Assembly: GCA_037445065.1 (NCBI GenBank)
Contig: JBBILD010000005.1
Span: 32,001-96,000, forward strand
Direction: 5' to 3'
DNA length: 64,000 nucleotides
Source of the DNA: Myxococcales bacterium
GTDB lineage: Bacteria; Desulfobacterota; Binatia; HRBIN30
The notes beneath the pieces are model-generated. The model was not told the DNA's origin, ran no database searches, and saw nothing but the letters and a program-made list of their open reading frames with translations. The position numbers and the translations under genes are program-made. How positions within the stretch are numbered: position 1 is the first letter of the stretch; every line of letters starts with the position of its first letter. Of the stretch, positions 1,286-9,452 are shown piece after piece.

Positions 1286-1731
1286 CACGCCAGCAGCAAG
1301 CGCTACATTTCAGTGTGAGACAGGTCTCAGGACCCAGCGAGCTCGCACTTGCGCTCTTCGTTCGCCGCCGTGTCTTCGTTGATGAGCAACGCATCCCCTA
1401 TGGGATCGAATTCGATACCGCAGACTGCGCCGCCCTTCATGCGCTGGCTTTGCGTGGAACGATGCCGATCGGCACAAGCCGCCTCCTCCTCACTGGGAAA
1501 AGTGCTCGAATCGGCCGTCTCGCTGTTCTGCCAACTGCGCGCCAGCTCGGCGTCGGTACGGCGATCCTCCAATTCTTGCTGCAACTCGGCCGGCGACACG
1601 GCGCAACGCACTTCCTCCTGCACGCCCAGCTCCCCACCTTGCCACTGTACTTGAGAGCAGGTTTTCACGTCACGAGCTCGGTCTTCTGGGAGGATGGCCT
1701 GCCTCACTGCCGCCTCGAGCGCACCGATTGA
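1282..1731 (+). CDS. GNAT family N-acetyltransferase (YjcF/ElaA-like)
   Basis: RRRVFVDEQ, ARIGRLAVLPTARQLGVG (acetyl-CoA motif A), LHAQ and LYLRAGF. The start is uncertain (CTG 1282 or GTG 1315). Confidence 0.85.
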   Translation: MTRQQQALHFSVRQVSGPSELALALFVRRRVFVDEQRIPYGIEFDTADCAALHALALRGTMPIGTSRLLLTGKSARIGRLAVLPTARQLGVGTAILQFLLQLGRRHGATHFLLHAQLPTLPLYLRAGFHVTSSVFWEDGLPHCRLERTD

Positions 1732-1756
1732 CTCACGAGCCAAAATTTCCTACTTG
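1728..1756 (+). promoter_or_regulatory. Putative sigma70 promoter of the iron operon
   Basis: TTGACT (1728-1733), 17-nt spacer, TACTTG (1751-1756). The -10 element is imperfect. Confidence 0.45.
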
Positions 1757-1766
1757 CAGGGAAACA

Positions 1767-1781
1767 TGAAAATGAGTTTCA
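1767..1781. promoter_or_regulatory. Fur-box-like 7-1-7 inverted repeat
   Basis: TGAAAAT-G-AGTTTCA is one mismatch from a perfect palindrome. It is an AT-rich island in GC-rich DNA, just downstream of the putative promoter and upstream of an operon ending in bfd-bfr. Confidence 0.65.
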
Positions 1782-1855
1782 AAATCGTAGGTGGCCCGCG
1801 CGGGGCTTTTGCCGGCGGAGAACAACACACCAAACCGTTGCGGAAGGGAGGACGT

Positions 1856-3235
1856 ATGCGACTTGCTTGTTGGGTGGTTGCACTGTTCGTGCTGGTCGGT
1901 GGATGGAGTCCACCTGCAGAGGGCCAATCCGGCTCAGGAAAGGACACCCTCAAGGAACTCCGTGAGGAGCAGGAGAGACTGCGTCGCGAACTGGAACGAC
2001 TCAAGCAGCAACTGGGTACACAGCGGGATGAGCAGAAACGGCTCCAGGAAATCGAGCGCAAGCAGACGATTGTCACGGACGAATTGCGGCGCTTGCGCGA
2101 AGCCTTTGTGCTTCCCGAAACCCGAGAGCTCAAGAGCTACTACGGTCTCGGCCCGGCGGCTTCGAAGGTGTACGGGCTCGAGCGCGGCCTCTCGATTGGT
2201 GGTTACGGAGAAGCGAATTTGCGAAGCGTCGTCGGCAATAAGGGTAGCGACAACGACGTGTTCGACTTTTTGCGCTTGGTTCTGTACGTCGGGTACAAGT
2301 TCAACGATTGGATCGTGTTCAACTCGGAAACGGAGTTCGAACATGCATCCACAGGCGAGAGTGGAGAAGTCTCGGTAGAGTTCGCCAATCTTGACTTCTT
2401 TCTTCATCAGATGGCGAACGTCCGCTTCGGCCTTGTGCTGGTACCGATGGGCTTCATCAACGAAGTGCACGAACCGCCGTTCTTCTTTGGGAACGTGCGC
2501 CCGCCAGTCGAGACGGTACTTTTGCCATCCACATGGCGGGCCAATGGGCTCGGGTTCTTCGGCGAAATCTTCCCCGGCCTCACCTACCGCACCTACGGCA
2601 TTACGAGCCTCGATGCAGCAGGGTTCCGCTCAAGCGGGATTCGAGGCGGCAGGCAGAGTGGCAGCCTAGAGCGGGCGGAGGATTTTTCCTGGGTCGGCCG
2701 CCTCGACTATTCGTTTCTACCCTCCTCATTCGTGGGCGTGTCTGCTTACGTCGGCGATCAAGGGCAAGGCCGTCTCTACGGACCGTCGGGATTACAAGAC
2801 GATGTCGGGGTTTTTACGCAAATCTACGAGGGCCACTTCCAACTTCGTTATCAGGGACTGGAGTTTCGCGCTTTAGGGACGGTAACCCTGCTCGACAACG
2901 CAACTCGCCTGAGCCTCGACCCGAGTATTAACCAACCAATCGGAAACCGGATGCTCGGCTATTACGCGGAGATCGGCTACGACATCTTGCCGCTGATCCT
3001 GCCCGGAACGACGCAATACCTCGCGCCTTGGTTCCGTTACTCGCACACGGACACGCAACAGAGCGTACCCTCGGGCCTAAGCGCGGACAATCGCCAGAAC
3101 CGCGACTACTTCGAAGCGGGATTGCAGTACAAACCCATCCCGCAGGTGGTGGTCAAACTCGACTACCGGAATCTGGACGCCGAGACTGGCACTCTTCCAG
3201 ACGAAATTCGCATCGGCGCTGGATTTGTTTTCTAA
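1856..3235 (+). CDS. Outer-membrane beta-barrel/porin-like protein with N-terminal coiled coil
   Basis: RBS GGAGG before ATG 1856, signal peptide, E/R/K/Q heptad-rich segment, alternating aromatic beta-strands (SIGGYGE, FNSETEFEH, EAGLQYKP) and C-terminal Phe (GAGFVF). Confidence 0.75.
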   Translation: MRLACWVVALFVLVGGWSPPAEGQSGSGKDTLKELREEQERLRRELERLKQQLGTQRDEQKRLQEIERKQTIVTDELRRLREAFVLPETRELKSYYGLGPAASKVYGLERGLSIGGYGEANLRSVVGNKGSDNDVFDFLRLVLYVGYKFNDWIVFNSETEFEHASTGESGEVSVEFANLDFFLHQMANVRFGLVLVPMGFINEVHEPPFFFGNVRPPVETVLLPSTWRANGLGFFGEIFPGLTYRTYGITSLDAAGFRSSGIRGGRQSGSLERAEDFSWVGRLDYSFLPSSFVGVSAYVGDQGQGRLYGPSGLQDDVGVFTQIYEGHFQLRYQGLEFRALGTVTLLDNATRLSLDPSINQPIGNRMLGYYAEIGYDILPLILPGTTQYLAPWFRYSHTDTQQSVPSGLSADNRQNRDYFEAGLQYKPIPQVVVKLDYRNLDAETGTLPDEIRIGAGFVF

Positions 3236-3238
3236 GTC

Positions 3239-3799
3239 ATGGAGCCTTTCCGCCGATCGCGGCTGCTCGAGGTGGTTCTGTTGGGGAGCTGGCTTACCGC
3301 CAGCTCCCCATTCCTGGTTTCGGCCGGTGTGCTGCACTCGCGTGATGAAGCACTCGCCATCGCCTTCCCAGACGCGGAGGAGATTCGGCCTCTCGACTTT
3401 TACTTGACGCCGGAGCAAAAGTCCGAAATCGAGCGCATTGCGGCAGCTAGCGTCGAATCGAATCTCATCACGGTGTACGCTGGACAGCGTAACGGTGCGC
3501 CCGCTGGCTACGCCTTTTTCGATACACACATCGTGCGTACACTGCCAGAAACGTTGCTCATTGTGCTTTCCCCGCGCGGAGAGGTAACGGGCGTTCATTT
3601 GCTCGCCTTCTACGAACCTCCCGAGTACGCACCACCGCAAGCTTGGTTCGAAAAATTCCGAGGTTGGAGCATGCCGGAGTCGGGCAATGCTCCACCAGAG
3701 GTAGCAGCGATCGCTGGTTCGACATTGTCGTCGCGAGCAGCCAATGCAGCGGTGCGCCGCGCCTTGGCAGTCTACCAAGTGCTGCTACGGCGGAGGTGA
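3239..3799 (+). CDS. Exported FMN-binding domain protein (RnfG/NqrC-type flavinylation substrate)
   Basis: Signal-like N-terminus and C-terminal AAIAGSTLSSRA, resembling the DxxSGAT flavinylation loop. It is in the same operon as apbE. Confidence 0.75.
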   Translation: MEPFRRSRLLEVVLLGSWLTASSPFLVSAGVLHSRDEALAIAFPDAEEIRPLDFYLTPEQKSEIERIAAASVESNLITVYAGQRNGAPAGYAFFDTHIVRTLPETLLIVLSPRGEVTGVHLLAFYEPPEYAPPQAWFEKFRGWSMPESGNAPPEVAAIAGSTLSSRAANAAVRRALAVYQVLLRRR

Positions 3800-3802
3800 G
3801 CG

Positions 3803-4327
3803 GTGCGCTTCGTGATCTCCGGGGAATGGACGCGCAACCGACTACTACGGGTCATCGTGTGGTGCTTCCTCGCTTACACCTTCGTGCTCTGGCTCACGAA
3901 CTTCGGATTGTACTTCAGTAAAATGGGCCTCAGCCCCAGCTCCGTTGCAAGCTATTACCGTGGCAACCAAGAACTGTTCCTGCAACCGAGATCGCTCCTC
4001 GGCCTCCTAGAGCAGCTTCACTTTCACAGTTTCGCCATGGGGATCTTGCTGCTCACCCTGACCCACCTCTTGCTTTTCGTTCCCATCTCGCTGTCCACAA
4101 AGGCCTGGGGCATTGCCGTCAGCTTCGCTTCGGCGCTTCTTGGAGAGGTTTCCGGCTGGGCCATCCGCTTCGTTCATCCTTCATTCGCTTATCTCAAAGT
4201 AGCTTCGTTCCTAGCACTACAGGGAACCTTGCTGTGGCTCATGGTGTGCGTGGCACGAGCGCTGTTCAGCCGCGCCCCGAGCGCGTATCCCGGTCGTGGG
4301 GCACCGCCGACATGGCCTGTCGAGTGA
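3803..4327 (+). CDS. Hypothetical 4-TM inner-membrane protein with His residues (possible heme b protein)
   Basis: Four hydrophobic segments; His73, His75 and His88 lie in or near helix 2. It is spaced 3 nt from the upstream gene and overlaps apbE. Confidence 0.7.
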   Translation: MRFVISGEWTRNRLLRVIVWCFLAYTFVLWLTNFGLYFSKMGLSPSSVASYYRGNQELFLQPRSLLGLLEQLHFHSFAMGILLLTLTHLLLFVPISLSTKAWGIAVSFASALLGEVSGWAIRFVHPSFAYLKVASFLALQGTLLWLMVCVARALFSRAPSAYPGRGAPPTWPVE

Positions 4328-5286
4328 TCCTCATGTTCGCCGCGGTATGTTTGTGTGCGCCGCACCTCGGTCAAGCGGCGAGCGCGCGCACAGGAGGTTT
4401 GGTGATGGGCACCATCCTCGACGTCGAAATCGAAGCTGCGACGCTGTCCGAGGCCCGTGACCTCGGTGCCCTCGCCCTTACCGTGGCCCGCCACTGGGAT
4501 GATGTGTTGAGCACCTGGAAAGCAGAGGCAGAGCTCGAACGGCTAAACCGACATGCGGGGACTTGGGTGCAACTCAGCTCTGACCTAGCGTGGGCAATCG
4601 AGCAAATGCGCGCCCTCTCGATCCAGACCCAAAATGCCTTCAATCCGTGCGTGGGGAGGTTTGTGCTTGGGCCAGCGTCGCATCCCACGCCGCCGCTCAT
4701 CCCCGAGTTGGGGAACGCCCTGGGCCTCCTGCAAGGAGCCGCGCGCGTGTCTGAGGATTGTCGCCTCGACGCTGGGGGAATCGGCAAAGGCATCGCACTG
4801 GATGCCATCGCTTCGGTTCTTTTGGCTCGCGGGGCACGGACCATCTTCCTCAACTTTGGGGGTTCGAGCCAAACGTTCGTATCGCGCAGCCCTGGGGCGC
4901 GCGTGGCGGTGGCACTGCCCCGCCTCAGCTCGAACGGATCCGCGGGAATCCTGTGGCTTCGCCAAGGGGCCGTTGGGACTTCACGTACCCCCGCCGAAGC
5001 GAGTTCCGGTGAGATTATAGACCCGCGTTCGGGCCAACCCGTCCAAGAAGCCCGCATGGCGACGGTCTGTGCCGCCAGCGCAGCAGAAGCAGACGCTTGG
5101 TCAACGGCAATCGTCGTTCTTGGGGACCAGGGCGTAGAGCTCGCGCAACGCGCCGGAATTTATGCCGTATTTCAGGACATGAGCACGTGGCGGGTTGGTG
5201 CACCTTTTTCTGACCGCGCCGCGACGGATCAAGCCGCTCCTCTTTTTGAGTGCGAATTCCAAGGATTCACAGGGGACCCCTCATGA
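4324..5286 (+). CDS. apbE: FAD:protein FMN transferase (ApbE family), divergent
   Basis: MGT, LDAGGIGKG, NFGG, IIDPRSG and ADAWSTA motifs. The GTG start overlaps the upstream TGA. Confidence 0.85.
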   Translation: MILMFAAVCLCAPHLGQAASARTGGLVMGTILDVEIEAATLSEARDLGALALTVARHWDDVLSTWKAEAELERLNRHAGTWVQLSSDLAWAIEQMRALSIQTQNAFNPCVGRFVLGPASHPTPPLIPELGNALGLLQGAARVSEDCRLDAGGIGKGIALDAIASVLLARGARTIFLNFGGSSQTFVSRSPGARVAVALPRLSSNGSAGILWLRQGAVGTSRTPAEASSGEIIDPRSGQPVQEARMATVCAASAAEADAWSTAIVVLGDQGVELAQRAGIYAVFQDMSTWRVGAPFSDRAATDQAAPLFECEFQGFTGDPS

Positions 5287-5525
5287 TCGTCTGCTTTTGC
5301 CACCGCCTTACCGAGGCGGACGTTGCGCGCTTCCGCTCGCTGGGTATCCGCGACTGGAAGAGCTTGGCTCGCCTCACCAAAGCGGGGAGCCGGTGCCGGC
5401 CCTGCCGCAGGGAGCTTGTCCGACTTCTCTCCCCCCAAAACAGCATCTCAAGCGGGGAGCAGCAGCTTGACTGCCTTCTCGAGAACCTGCAGAAGGATCA
5501 CCAAGTGGAGGCGGCGAAACCGTGA
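5283..5525 (+). CDS. bfd: Bacterioferritin-associated [2Fe-2S] ferredoxin
   Basis: MIVCFCH...AGSRCRPC (CxC...CxxC) directly upstream of bfr, with an ATGA overlap. Confidence 0.85.
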
Positions 5526-5992
5526 AAGGGAATCCGAAGCTCATCGAGCTGCTCAATGAGGTACTCACCGGCGAACTGACCAGCATCAATCAGTACTTTG
5601 TGCATGCGAAAATGTGCGAGAACTGGGGCTACCACCGCTTGTACGAGAGGATCCGGAAAGAATCGATTGACGAAATGAGACACGCTGATGAACTCATCGA
5701 GCGGATTCTCTTCCTCGACGGTGTACCGAACGTGCAAAGGCTGGGGAAAGTGCGCGTGGGAGAGACCGTACCCGAGCAGCTCAAGCTCGATCTCGCACTC
5801 GAGAAAGAAGCAGTGACTCGCCTAAACCAAGCGATTGCCTTGGCAGTGGAAGTAGGCGACAACGGCACGAGACACCTGCTCGAGTCACTGCTGAAAAGCG
5901 AGGAAGAACACATCGAGTGGCTTGAAGCGCAGCTCACGCTTCTCGAACAAGTTGGAGAGAAAAATTACTTGGCGCAGCAAATCCGTGATTAA
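5522..5992 (+). CDS. bfr: Bacterioferritin
   Basis: MKG...[28 protein letters not shown] (heme Met52), [11 protein letters not shown] and EEEHIEWLE. Confidence 0.97.
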
Positions 5993-6002
5993 CACTGGCG
6001 GT

Positions 6003-6524
6003 ATGCCGGTATTCACCTGCACGGTACCCTGTCCAGCTGGAGCCCTAATCGTTTCGGCCACACCCGTTTCGATCATCGCCGTCCACTGGTGCTCAGAGGA
6101 AGTGGGAGAATCGCCAGTTTCGCACTCCTCATGCGAGGGAGCGTCCAGCCCGAATCCCGTCCTTCTGCAGCGGGCCAGTGAAGAACTTCGTGAGTACCTC
6201 GCTTCTGCGCGCACCCGGTTCACGGTTCCCTGGTCCGTAAGCGGCACTCCGTTTCAGACGAAGGTATGGGAGGCCCTGTCCCGTGTGCCCTATGGGGCTA
6301 CGTGGAGTTACCGTGAACTGGCACAGGCCGTCGGCGCACCACGAGCGGTGCGGGCAGTGGCCAACGCAGTCGCTGCCAATCCCATCGCCATTATCCTTCC
6401 CTGCCATCGAATCGTGTGTTCGGACGGCACCTTGGGCGGCTACGCTGGGGGTGTGGCTCGCAAGCAATGGCTCTTGGACATGGAACGAAACCGACCCGTT
6501 CAGACGGCGAGTTCTTCCTCTTGA
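6003..6524 (+). CDS. ogt: Methylated-DNA--protein-cysteine methyltransferase
   Basis: GTPFQTKVW, PYGATWSY, RAVANA, PCHR active site and GGYAGG. Confidence 0.93.
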   Translation: MPVFTCTVPCPAGALIVSATPVSIIAVHWCSEEVGESPVSHSSCEGASSPNPVLLQRASEELREYLASARTRFTVPWSVSGTPFQTKVWEALSRVPYGATWSYRELAQAVGAPRAVRAVANAVAANPIAIILPCHRIVCSDGTLGGYAGGVARKQWLLDMERNRPVQTASSSS

Positions 6525-7426: not shown

Positions 7427-7676
7427 ACCGTGCCCGGTGATTAACTGCCTTCCGCAGGCCAGGCCAGAGTGCGCAGACCACCGTAGAGCTGTTCTGTCCA
7501 CCACAGGGCAGGTACGAGGCCTCGCGGCTTGCGCATACCGCCAGGCCTGCATCGGAACGGGGAATCTTCGATCAAAGGCACGCAGCCCAAGCTTGGCAGG
7601 TCAGCAGAACTGGGATAGACGACGTTGCTTCCAGCGCGAAGCGTTGGAGGCACGTGTGGAGGTTTGGCCCGAACGT

Positions 7677-9452
7677 ATGGATTGGACGCGAAATCAGCTT
7701 GCACAGGTACAGCTTCACGCTCGCCCCGAAAGCAGTGAAACCGAGCAGTTCGCTGTCCAAGAACTCGGCGCCTACCTGCATCGCCTCGCAGGGAGGCCAC
7801 AGCTGGTCCCACTCCCCTTGGAAGCCGACCATCCTGAAATTGTCCTCGGCGCGCCTTCGCAGGCAAGGCTCAGTCCTTGTCCCCAGCAGGGCTTCGCGAT
7901 CGAGATCACGGAAGATACCGTCACACTTCACGGACACACGGCGGCGGACCTCCTGCATGTCGTGTACGCGTTTTTGGAACAACTCGGCTGCCGTTGGTCA
8001 GTGCGCGGCCGTAGTGAAGAATTCGTACCTTCCACCACCGAGCGGTTCTCCCTTCGTTCGCAAACCTGGGGTGCATCGGGCATTCGCTTCGGCTTTTGCA
8101 GCGACTTAATCAGTTGGCATTACACGCAGCCTGCACTCTACGAGGAGCGGATTGGCGAGGACCGCGAACTGGTCGACTGGATGGCGAAAGTCGGGGCCTC
8201 GACGTTGTTTTTCATCCGCCACCCGTTCGACTCTCAAAATACGATTCCTGAACTCGTTCTGGAGTGCGGGCGCCGCGGGATTTCTGTCGAGCACGGCGGC
8301 CATATCGTGCCCTTACTCTTGCCGCGAGAACTCTTTTCGGAACATCCTGAGTATTTTCCTGTAGGGCCTGCTGGGGAACGCACAGGCCTCGGGAACGTCT
8401 GTGCGAGTCAGGCCGGCGCACTGGACACGATCGCCCGTAACGCCGTGGCTTGGGTGAGGGAGCTACCGAAGTCGCGCTTCTTTCACGTGTGGGGCGCTGA
8501 TCTGTGGAAGGGAGGGTGGTGTCACTGCCCCGGTTGCAGCCCGCTTTCGCCCCAAGACCAAAGCCTCAGGGTCTGCAACGCAGTCGCCGTGGCACTCTCA
8601 CGAGCAGGGTACAACGTGCCTGTGTGCTATCTCGCTTACCACGACACCATCGACGCGGAACTTCGGGAAACCCCAGCGGAGAACGTTTGGTGCGAGTTTG
8701 CGCCCCGCGAGCGTTGTTACGCCCACTCGATCGGCGACCCCGAATGCACGCGCAATCAGCGGTACTGGAGAGCTGTGCAAGGGTACGTGCAACAGTTTCG
8801 AGGCAGGGTACGCGTCTTCGAATATTACGGCGATGCCATCTTGTTCTTTGGTTGCGCCGCGCCGATTTCCCAAACGATCGAGGCAGACCTTCGCCAATAT
8901 CGCTCCTTGGGCATTGATGACGTCCTCATGCTTCAGTTCGGGAGCTACAGCCGATGGGCGTACGCGACCAATTTTCTGGCCTTCACCCGCGGGATCCATG
9001 CAGGGTCGCGGTCGAATGACCGGCCCCGGCCGGACTGGCCGGAGGCCGATGCGGAACTCATCGAGGGTTTGTTCCGGCTCGAGCCTCTGATTTGCCCCTT
9101 GCTATGCTACGGCGATGTGCGCTTGGCCCCGCGAGACCCCGAGCTGGCAGCCACGGTCGTACACTTGGTGTCTCGTACCCTTCCTCTCCTTGGTGCCATA
9201 GCCGACGATCTGGAAGCGCGCGGAACAGCCTCGAGCACCGCTCTCGCGCGGCTAGCGCGGTATACACAAACCGTCTTCGCGGGAGTGGAGCATGAAATTC
9301 GCACCGGGAGCCGAGTGCATTCGATTTATGCCGCAGCGCTAGAAACGTTACGAGCCGTGGATCACCGCTGGAAAGGGGTGTGGGGCGAGGTAGATCTGCC
9401 GACAATCCACAGCTTGTACGAGGGAGCGTTGTTAACCCTACCCAACGAATAA
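7677..9452 (+). CDS. DUF4838-like putative glycoside hydrolase
   Basis: N-terminal GH20/GH67-like domain (AVQELGAYL...LLHVVYAFLEQLGCRW), HPEYFP, WCHCPGC, YLAYH and FEYY. Confidence 0.65.
   Translation: MDWTRNQLAQVQLHARPESSETEQFAVQELGAYLHRLAGRPQLVPLPLEADHPEIVLGAPSQARLSPCPQQGFAIEITEDTVTLHGHTAADLLHVVYAFLEQLGCRWSVRGRSEEFVPSTTERFSLRSQTWGASGIRFGFCSDLISWHYTQPALYEERIGEDRELVDWMAKVGASTLFFIRHPFDSQNTIPELVLECGRRGISVEHGGHIVPLLLPRELFSEHPEYFPVGPAGERTGLGNVCASQAGALDTIARNAVAWVRELPKSRFFHVWGADLWKGGWCHCPGCSPLSPQDQSLRVCNAVAVALSRAGYNVPVCYLAYHDTIDAELRETPAENVWCEFAPRERCYAHSIGDPECTRNQRYWRAVQGYVQQFRGRVRVFEYYGDAILFFGCAAPISQTIEADLRQYRSLGIDDVLMLQFGSYSRWAYATNFLAFTRGIHAGSRSNDRPRPDWPEADAELIEGLFRLEPLICPLLCYGDVRLAPRDPELAATVVHLVSRTLPLLGAIADDLEARGTASSTALARLARYTQTVFAGVEHEIRTGSRVHSIYAAALETLRAVDHRWKGVWGEVDLPTIHSLYEGALLTLPNE

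Follow-up and report, generated by a model that had tools for sequence, protein, structure and literature searches.

We analysed a stretch of 64,000 nucleotides (nt), hereafter the window, from a genome deposited as Myxococcales bacterium and placed by GTDB in the lineage Desulfobacterota; Binatia; HRBIN30 (NCBI GenBank assembly GCA_037445065.1, contig JBBILD010000005.1, positions 32,001 to 96,000 of the forward strand). An earlier sequence-only reading had singled out six genes near its start, behind a Fur-type palindrome, as a candidate flavinylation-based system of iron acquisition and storage. Here we show that the first four of these genes, encoding an outer-membrane barrel, an exported flavin mononucleotide (FMN)-binding protein, an inner-membrane protein with four transmembrane helices (4-TM) and the flavin transferase ApbE, make up a genuine and conserved module, apparently under iron control and not described before, the key membrane component of which has no known function. 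The features of the locus, in window coordinates and with protein lengths in amino acids (aa), are these:

1767..1786, no strand assigned: Fur-type operator, comprising a palindrome at 1767-1781 and a 19-mer at 1768-1786
1856..3235, + strand: predicted porin-fold barrel, 459 aa (AlphaFold2 model, Foldseek)
3239..3799, + strand: RnfG/NqrC-like FMN_bind protein, 186 aa (PF04205)
3803..4327, + strand: 4-TM inner-membrane protein, 174 aa (PF27139, Aq_1264_TM)
4312..5286 (from ATG 4312 or GTG 4324), + strand: ApbE, flavin adenine dinucleotide (FAD):protein FMN transferase (PF02424)
5283..5525, + strand: Bfd, 80 aa (PF04324)
5522..5992, + strand: Bfr (bacterioferritin), 156 aa (TIGR00754)

Six tightly spaced genes behind an operator

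The list of open reading frames and the sequence itself define an operon of six co-directional genes at 1856-5992, and the tight spacing claimed for it was confirmed, with junctions from the barrel to Bfr measuring, in order, +3, +3, -4 (or -16), -4 and -4 nt. The alternative value concerns the border between the 4-TM and ApbE genes, where a start of ApbE at GTG 4324 gives a 4-nt overlap and a start at ATG 4312 a 16-nt one; the ATG is the more likely start because it yields the better signal peptide, MACRVILMFAAV.... The barrel ATG at 1856 is preceded by GGAAGGGAGGA, and the GTG start of the 4-TM gene agrees with the VRFVVTGEW starts of its homologues. Position 1728, from which the operon had been counted, marks the start of the intergenic region and not of a gene: a GNAT acetyltransferase gene ends at 1731 and is followed by a 124-nt gap containing the palindrome, with the barrel gene beginning at 1856. 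A simple promoter and terminator scan detected no terminator inside the operon or after bfr.

Family scans upheld the names given to the six products, with the reservations that the OMP_b-brl match of the barrel is sub-threshold and that the 4-TM protein finds no match in the local Pfam library. The same scans returned no match to the TonB-dependent receptor, Feo or FTR1 families in any of the six genes, in agreement with the reported lack of such genes, and FTR1 had no match anywhere in the genome (97.7% completeness).

The module is conserved and adjoins iron genes

The window 4-TM protein retrieved 21 species-representative genomes, whose flanking genes were annotated from crude gene calls that may miss small genes. 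An FMN_bind gene lies directly upstream of the 4-TM gene in all 21 loci, ApbE comes next in 20 of them (the exception being L022), and a barrel gene is adjacent in 14. Iron-related neighbours recur around this core, namely Fur in 5/21 loci, cytochrome c-FTR1 fusions in 3/21, divergent ExbB in 8/21, and ExbD and TonB in 7/21 each. LOG-like, HAD, FGGY-kinase and FAD-oxidase genes are also found repeatedly farther downstream, which we take to be plain synteny. The cytochrome c-FTR1 fusions (L002:1073-3595, L006:2819-5422 and L012:1173-3884) are 840-903 aa long, contain two cytochrome c domains and stand directly upstream of the module; an excerpt from work on cyanobacteria uses the name cFTR1 for such fusions (bioRxiv 10.1101/2021.11.08.467730).

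More distant genomes were surveyed in two phyla. In the GTDB phylum of the window, the 4-TM gene was found in 26 of 301 sampled genomes, and 13 of the 25 other matching genomes were fetched. The order barrel, FMN_bind, 4-TM is kept in 8/8 full-length matches, and ApbE lies within the fetched stretch in five of these eight. L029 reads barrel, FMN_bind, ApbE, 4-TM, FTR1; L031 and L032 read FeoB, DtxR-like regulator, ApbE, barrel, FMN_bind and a tandem 4-TM gene; and in L027, P19 and a Fer4_5 polyferredoxin are encoded a few genes off the module. The module genes were absent from the five fetched genomes with weak, partial 4-TM matches. In Acidobacteriota, the phylum of L022, the 4-TM gene was found in 9 of 301 genomes, of which eight were examined (G403 being unfetched), and the trio of barrel, FMN_bind and 4-TM occurs in the same order in 6/8. 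In G584 a weak 4-TM match is accompanied by FMN_bind, ApbE and a divergently oriented barrel, and G320 has none of the module genes. Weak or partial matches (G145, G280, G120, G130, G252 and G320; C-terminal half only, or E 1e-16 to 1e-21) were left out of the module counts and treated as a different subfamily, with other neighbours and no module genes.

The conserved unit is therefore the barrel, FMN_bind and 4-TM genes, usually with ApbE. The expectation that these four genes would co-occur elsewhere held, in the 21 loci and in the distant genomes of two phyla, as did the expectation that they would stay with iron genes: iron regulators and importers of three kinds are adjacent, and Fur-type boxes lie upstream. 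An iron role of the module is well supported, because its neighbours include Fur, DtxR, FTR1, cytochrome c-FTR1, P19, FeoB and ExbB-ExbD-TonB.

A Fur-type box lies ahead of the module

The palindrome TGAAAATGAGTTTCA (TGAAAAT-G-AGTTTCA) at 1767-1781 has a single exact copy in the window; with up to three mismatches there are four matches, one of them its own reverse strand, against 0.78 expected. By eye, it matches the 7-1-7 inverted repeat TGATAAT-N-ATTATCA at 11/14 positions. The overlapping 19-mer GAAAATGAGTTTCAAAATC, which occupies 1768-1786 and precedes the barrel ATG by 70 nt, matches the classical Fur consensus at 14/19 positions. A weight matrix derived from 13 orthologous sites was run over the entire 3.79 Mb genome (GC content 62.9%). 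The window 19-mer scores 27.1 bits, the second of only two sites above 25 bits genome-wide, and 11 genome matches reach at least 15 bits, compared with 7-8 in shuffles. The third-ranked locus consists of overlapping matches of 17.4 and 16.8 bits (G000:C4:177787-177811; L026:3288-3312) about 140 nt upstream of feoB, which lies on a contig other than that of the window (L026:3430-5553) and encodes a FeoB of 707 aa. In this genome, where FTR1 has no match, Fe(II) is likely imported by FeoB. Two Fur-family genes are present in the genome (C15:13367 and C22:14942).

Conservation of the box was surveyed in 20 related loci with upstream sequence, at a threshold of 14/19 or better. A box lies within 262 nt of the presumed first gene in 12 loci and directly upstream of a module gene in 17/20 overall. 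Among 807 control windows from the same loci, 0.6% reach 14/19, and most of these matches themselves lie at module promoters (L002, L003, L004, L010 and L012). The L006 box has a core identical to that of the window, TGAAAATGAGTTTCAAAATC, and TTGAC(A/T), the consensus -35 hexamer, stands ahead of the box in many related loci. The Fur-type palindrome proposed ahead of the operon thus ranks second in its genome and belongs to a conserved box, and at the level of sequence Fur-type control of the module is well supported.

The top Fur-type site of the genome (30.0 bits; G000:C3:155567-155585, L025:4068-4086, on contig 3) lies about 445 nt upstream of a pair of paralogous genes (L025:4531-5706 and L025:5744-6772), the products of which, 391 and 342 aa long, look secreted. 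Neither has a Pfam match at E<=1e-5, and these paralogues may be unknown members of the iron regulon.

The first gene encodes a predicted porin with a conserved loop

The barrel carries a signal peptide, and its AlphaFold2 model, built from 37 sequences with a mean confidence (pLDDT) of 81, shows 16 strands after an N-terminal coiled coil (~residues 28-83). Foldseek matched the model to OmpU, OmpC and OmpF at E 4.7e-13, with TM-scores of 0.64-0.70 by target length, whereas sequence identity to these porins is only 11-18%; the OMP_b-brl match is weak (1.8e-5, below cut-off), and a comparison with PDB sequences returned coiled-coil noise only. On the strength of the model, the protein is assigned to the 16-stranded general-porin fold, sharing with OmpU, OmpC and OmpF the fold, the strand number and a long loop after strand 5. 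It differs from them in its N-terminal coiled-coil extension, in a stronger conservation of loop and lumen, and in belonging to an operon with redox genes.

Across 37 sequences at 41-86% identity, the barrel family has 61 invariant columns, with conservation concentrated at E158-x-E160-x-E162-H163 and in the loop between strands 5 and 6 (N202, H205, E206, R215 and E219). This long, highly conserved loop bears the motif NE.HEPP..GN.RP and occupies the position of the porin constriction loop L3. The barrel has at least 4138 homologues, almost all of them without a Pfam family. DUF3570, a flavinylated substrate of outer-membrane type (PMC8238504), was considered as its identity and rejected, as there was no PF12094 match. 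The barrel gene at L020:4067-5371, which reads with one in-frame stop, was excluded from the alignment; the stop could reflect a pseudogene, a sequencing error or the choice of coordinates.

An RnfG-like protein is the predicted substrate of ApbE

The FMN_bind protein matches PF04205 (1.9e-6, 28.9 bits against a cut-off of 22) and aligns with the RnfG chain 9eri_G (E 3.2e-6) over residues 50-182, its whole mature part. Its whole periplasmic domain is covered by this alignment, and it keeps the FMN-bearing threonine of RnfG/NqrC: the predicted flavinylation site is Thr162 in I-A-G-S-T-L-S, and G160, T162 and L163 are invariant in 19/19 sequences of the family, whose motif is [IV]-T-G-[SA]-T-L. 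Unlike RnfG/NqrC, it stands alone and has a signal peptide that looks cleavable as well as extra invariant residues, and unlike Rnf/Nqr complexes, the cluster contains no RnfD/NqrB, RnfA/E or RnfC genes by family scan. Flavin attachment does not account for these extra residues (D95, H97, R100, E104, E126, Y130 and W136), which could form a substrate site.

ApbE matches PF02424 at 4.3e-37 over profile positions 1-266 of 266, and signal-peptide-like N-termini were read by eye on both ApbE and the FMN_bind protein. We infer from these sequence features that ApbE covalently flavinylates the FMN_bind protein. A complex prediction for the 4-TM and FMN_bind proteins scored 0.02 (mark 0.32), a result that speaks neither for nor against their pairing.

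The 4-TM protein belongs to a family without assigned function

The 4-TM protein has 850 homologues after clustering at 90%, and 406 cluster representatives at 50% identity with E<=0.001. PF27139, named Aq_1264_TM in the Atlas, is precomputed on all 120 homologues listed, including the 99%-identical cluster P0001, and the nearest Atlas clusters carry it on 99-100% of their members. From this precomputed annotation of its homologues, the 4-TM protein is assigned to PF27139; the window protein itself had no match at E<=0.01 in the local Pfam library, which is without a PF27139 model. A full-text literature search found no paper on aq_1264.

The claim that the 4-TM protein stands outside the known partners of flavinylation systems proved sound. 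None of 43 diverse members matched the published partner Pfam families at E<=1, the classes covered being NapH-like, MsrQ-like, PepSY-like, DsbD, NqrB/RnfD-like and DUF4405; for DUF4405, the one class also compared profile to profile, hhalign against proteins of the same phylum gave a probability of 0.9%. The family profile found nothing among PDB sequences. The suggestion of a new class stands in part: the protein falls outside the published partner classes, but its family is already in Pfam as PF27139, without an assigned function.

The AlphaFold2 model (pLDDT 92.8) shows four long helices and a short amphipathic helix in the first loop. G54 is invariant, and at least 90% of the 43 members keep Y52, E70, H73, H75, H88 and K100; E70, H73, H75 and H88 all lie on transmembrane helix 2 (TM2). 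The description of the protein as histidine-bearing is accordingly right for H73, H75 and H88, whereas H125, perhaps counted there too, is not conserved. Two candidate identities were set aside. Haem A synthase of B. subtilis, as a structural relative, appeared in Foldseek at E 2.2, which is not meaningful, and a di-haem cytochrome b, with four histidines on two helices ~13-14 residues apart, does not fit a protein that has only three conserved histidines, all on TM2, unless a site is built between subunits.

Natural fusions suggest how the protein sits in the membrane. P0124, P0126 and P0127 join the 4-TM domain to ApbE, as P0167 does with a tandem 4-TM, and in these fusions ApbE comes after a charged linker and a fifth hydrophobic segment; because of that fifth segment, the N and C termini of the 4-TM domain would be cytoplasmic. 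This topology would place E70, H73 and H75 at the periplasmic end of TM2 and H88 13-15 residues deeper. P0171 continues at its C-terminal end into a DtxR metal-binding domain and FeoA, and P0137 joins the 4-TM domain to a PilZ domain; these partners suggest that in some lineages cytoplasmic metal or cyclic di-GMP gates the activity of the 4-TM domain.

Seventeen representatives contain two 4-TM domains, and such tandem forms occur in the same module (L031 and L032). The conserved TM2 residues are distributed between their repeats as follows:

E/D70: repeat 1, 16/17; repeat 2, variable
H73: repeat 1, 17/17; repeat 2, 3/17
H75: repeat 1, 0/17; repeat 2, 17/17
H88: repeat 1, 0/17 (mostly Ser/Gly/Ala); repeat 2, 17/17

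Because the conserved residues are split between the repeats, the simplest reading is that single-domain proteins pair into dimers that have two equivalent sites, E70 and H73 in each site coming from one partner and H75 and H88 from the other, and that only one of the two sites was kept after duplication. Such a split would allow for one haem near the periplasmic face, ligated by H73 and H75', in which case H88 would serve a quinol site or a second cofactor; a 2-His-1-carboxylate metal site together with a metal path would fit just as well.

Comparison with published flavinylation systems

That electrons are transferred outside the cytoplasm by means of flavinylation has been recognised only recently; published surveys name five or six kinds of membrane partner, and many ApbE clusters still lack an explanation in them. 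In the portions consulted here, Meheust et al. 2021 (PMC8238504) describe five classes of flavinylation-associated membrane partners, several of them linked to iron assimilation, and propose Fur-repressed clusters of ApbE, DUF2271 and PepSY as iron reductases. A table row elsewhere lists an iron-responsive ApbE gene in Caulobacter (PMC3751524). Clusters of PepSY (FoxB/VciB type), DUF2271, DUF4198 and ApbE resemble the module in combining ApbE, an exported flavinylated protein and a small histidine-bearing membrane partner. Shared, too, are Fur repression (cited there for Caulobacter and Shewanella, and suggested here by a Fur-type box) and iron transporter or TonB neighbours, as far as the same portions go. 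In contrast to these clusters, the predicted flavinylation substrate of the module has an RnfG-like FMN_bind fold and not DUF2271, its partner is Aq_1264_TM (0/43 members match PF03929 or PF16357), and it has a dedicated porin-fold barrel and no DUF4198.

Excerpts of Huang et al. 2024 (bioRxiv 10.1101/2024.03.13.584918) report that DUF4405 and FezC, small membrane proteins linked to flavinylation or ferrosomes, bind haem b, and FezC is modelled there as a homodimer with haem sites between the subunits. Like the 4-TM protein, these are small membrane proteins beside apbE with their most conserved histidines on transmembrane helices, according to those excerpts, and DUF4405 proteins of the window's phylum have two invariant histidines 14 residues apart on one helix, a pattern resembling that of H73/H75 and H88. 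They differ in lacking detectable homology to the 4-TM family and, for DUF4405, in having six reported transmembrane helices against four in our model; the 4-TM protein, moreover, has three conserved histidines on a single helix plus a conserved glutamate, and haem binding is conjectural here. The P19/FTR1 (FtrABCD-type) clusters likewise tie a flavinylated periplasmic protein to FTR1/P19 uptake, and some relatives of the module adjoin FTR1 or P19. As described in the relevant passages of PMC8238504, however, P19/FTR1 clusters with an FMN-binding gene lack a transmembrane electron-transfer part and are mostly Gram-positive, whereas the module has a specific 4-TM partner and a porin, and the window has neither FTR1 nor P19.

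The words porin and bacterioferritin have 0 occurrences in the portions of the PMC8238504 text covered here, the supplementary cluster tables of which may list such clusters unnamed, and are not mentioned in the excerpts of bioRxiv 10.1101/2024.03.13.584918. Literature searches on the Fur regulon and ApbE found nothing on this module. The module appears to work like the published flavinylation systems and is by sequence a member of none.

A candidate route for reductive iron acquisition

On balance, we consider it probable that this is a Fur-repressed operon whose first four genes constitute a conserved envelope module for reductive iron acquisition. The dedicated 16-stranded porin, with its conserved constriction loop, would admit iron species to the periplasm, and extracytoplasmic ApbE would attach FMN covalently to Thr162 of the exported RnfG-like protein, which would then reduce Fe(III) to Fe(II). 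Electrons would reach this flavoprotein through dimeric Aq_1264_TM, by way of a cofactor or substrate site on TM2 to which one subunit contributes E70 and H73 and its partner H75 and H88, with the E70/H73/H75 end periplasmic; the site would most likely hold haem b and be fed by quinol. Fe(II) would enter the cytoplasm via a separate importer, FeoB here and FTR1, cytochrome c-FTR1 or a P19-type system in relatives. Joined to the 3' end of the operon by translational coupling, bfd and bfr would put storage and mobilisation on the same transcript. In this account flavinylation, electron supply by the 4-TM protein and the direction in which electrons run are inferred, as are the cofactor held by that protein, the porin substrate and Fur binding.

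One claim had to be revised, namely that the operon encodes a complete chain, as it lacks an inner-membrane iron importer. The module probably works with a separate importer, since in relatives it adjoins FTR1, FeoB or P19; here this may be FeoB, encoded on another contig behind its own weak box. More tentatively, and with rather less confidence than we give to the acquisition role, we propose that Aq_1264_TM represents a new class of membrane redox or metal-site protein with a trans-assembled site, acting as the electron or iron gate of an undescribed route composed of a porin, a flavinylated RnfG-like reductase and a 4-TM dimer, and unrelated in sequence and fold to the PepSY, MsrQ, DUF4405, NapH, DsbD and Rnf/Nqr partners.

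Several observations weigh against this account. The evidence on each module member is computational. The barrel is not next door in 7/21 loci, and ApbE is not nearby in 3/8 distant ones. The window motif A-G-S-T departs from the substrate motif [S/T]GA[S/T] given for flavinylated domains in the passages of PMC8238504 covered here, and its first position is Ala where Thr occurs in at least 90% of the 19 sequences. For the 4-TM protein, structure comparison gave no relative that would indicate a function: Foldseek against the PDB returned nothing at E<=0.001, and a wide VIA-align search returned generic four-helix bundles only (Z<=9.4, below the helical-bundle background), a result that excludes no family; the DUF4405 comparison was equally negative. 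Its three conserved histidines sit on a single helix, and tandem forms keep one H88, so that a classical bis-His di-haem wire is ruled out there. On the regulatory side, the strongest Fur-like site of the genome precedes two genes without a visible iron link, and a simple scan found no sigma-70-type promoter at the window box. Storage ferritin is usually made when iron is plentiful, and a Bfr behind a Fur-repressed promoter is physiologically odd; for this reason bfd and bfr may have a promoter of their own.

A glutamate and three histidines on one transmembrane helix, split as {E70, H73} and {H75, H88} in tandem forms, would also suit metal coordination, and the 4-TM protein could itself be the Fe(II) path, a small oligomeric permease or channel with E70, H73 and H75' as a metal site at the periplasmic mouth and H88 as an inner station. 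The flavoprotein would then reduce Fe(III) at the entrance with electrons from elsewhere, such as soluble periplasmic carriers; the cytochrome c-FTR1 fusions beside the module in 3/21 loci could supply them. Such a role would agree with the failure to find FTR1 in the window operon or genome and with the cytoplasmic C-terminal fusions to DtxR-metal-binding plus FeoA and PilZ domains, which resemble the gating domains of transporters. We nevertheless regard it as unlikely: with the dedicated importers FTR1, FeoB and P19 beside the module in relatives, a second permease would be redundant, this genome has FeoB, neither Foldseek, VIA-align, sequence profiles nor Pfam revealed similarity to known metal transporters, and the ApbE fusion would be left unexplained.

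Electrons could also run the other way, the module accepting the electron from Fe(II) oxidation during FTR1/P19-type uptake and relaying it to the quinone pool by way of the flavoprotein and the 4-TM protein, on the model of the role proposed for FtrB/FtrD in FtrABCD systems. The failure to find FTR1 in this genome and the pairing of the module with FeoB, an Fe(II) importer, at other loci make this improbable, as does the fact that a flavin of low midpoint potential is a poor Fe(II) oxidant; it draws on the loci where the module adjoins FTR1 (L029), cytochrome c-FTR1 (L002, L006 and L012) or P19 and a Fer4_5 polyferredoxin (L027), and on the FMN-binding genes of P19/FTR1 clusters, whose redox role is left undefined in the relevant part of PMC8238504. 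Very improbable, in our judgement, is a role of the 4-TM protein as an accessory of ApbE, whether as a flavin (FAD) exporter serving the periplasmic transferase or as a scaffold for ApbE and its substrate. For most Gram-negative bacteria it is not known how periplasmic ApbE obtains its FAD, and four representatives fuse a single or tandem 4-TM to ApbE (P0124, P0126, P0127 and P0167). The 4-TM gene, however, tracks FMN_bind better than ApbE (21/21 against 20/21 loci, and 8/8 against 5/8 distant ones), and most genomes with ApbE are without the 4-TM family, which was found in 26/301 and 9/301 genomes of two phyla. Its His/Glu pattern, moreover, seems unlike that of known flavin transporters.

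If electron delivery through the 4-TM protein to a periplasmic ferric reductase is correct, it would explain how bacteria of this kind acquire iron without siderophore receptors, and would give a function to PF27139 and to a family of porins that numbers thousands. To the membrane partners listed for flavinylation systems the module adds another candidate kind, with its own outer-membrane channel and clear signs of iron regulation, and it is common in poorly studied, mostly uncultured groups, among them Binatia-like bacteria, Acidobacteriota and others (Atlas). What the window contributes is a bfd-bfr pair attached by translational coupling, the rank of the box within its genome, the residue split in tandem repeats and the fusion partners; the asymmetry of the repeats makes the mechanism of the 4-TM protein open to a precise test by mutation.

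bfd and bfr are a lineage-specific addition

Both distal genes encode recognisable iron-storage proteins. Bfd matches PF04324 (Fer2_BFD) at 2.2e-7 (31.5 bits against a cut-off of 26), and its translation offers Cys4, Cys6, Cys38 and Cys41 as candidate ligands of a [2Fe-2S] cluster. Bfr matches TIGR00754 at 5.8e-63 (211.6 bits against a cut-off of 125.55) and has Met52 and the ferroxidase residues Glu18, Glu51 and His54, in the numbering of E. coli Bfr. The inclusion of the pair in the system did not survive the survey: Bfr occurs in one of the 21 related loci (L012), Bfd in none by tblastn and in one by Pfam (L018), and tblastn found neither in the eight distant loci. We conclude that bfd and bfr are a lineage-specific addition outside the conserved unit.

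The Bfd gene of L018 lies at 7517-7801. The same locus contains, in addition to the ApbE gene behind the 4-TM gene, a second and longer ApbE-family gene (L018:2250-3872, - strand; 540 aa, ApbE domain 46-317), divergently oriented upstream of the barrel. The contig of L008, assigned to a metagenome-assembled genome (MAG) of Nitrosopumilus, carries the set of FMN_bind, 4-TM and ApbE with a 4-TM protein 68% identical to that of the window and Binatia-like neighbours; it has probably been mis-binned into the archaeal MAG.

Downstream of the operon, an O6-methylguanine-DNA methyltransferase gene occupies 6003-6524 on the + strand (PF01035, 8.4e-34; start chosen by eye). It may be a seventh gene of the same transcript, because it begins ~11 nt past the bfr stop with no terminator between. 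The order Bfr, then methyltransferase, also occurs in L012.

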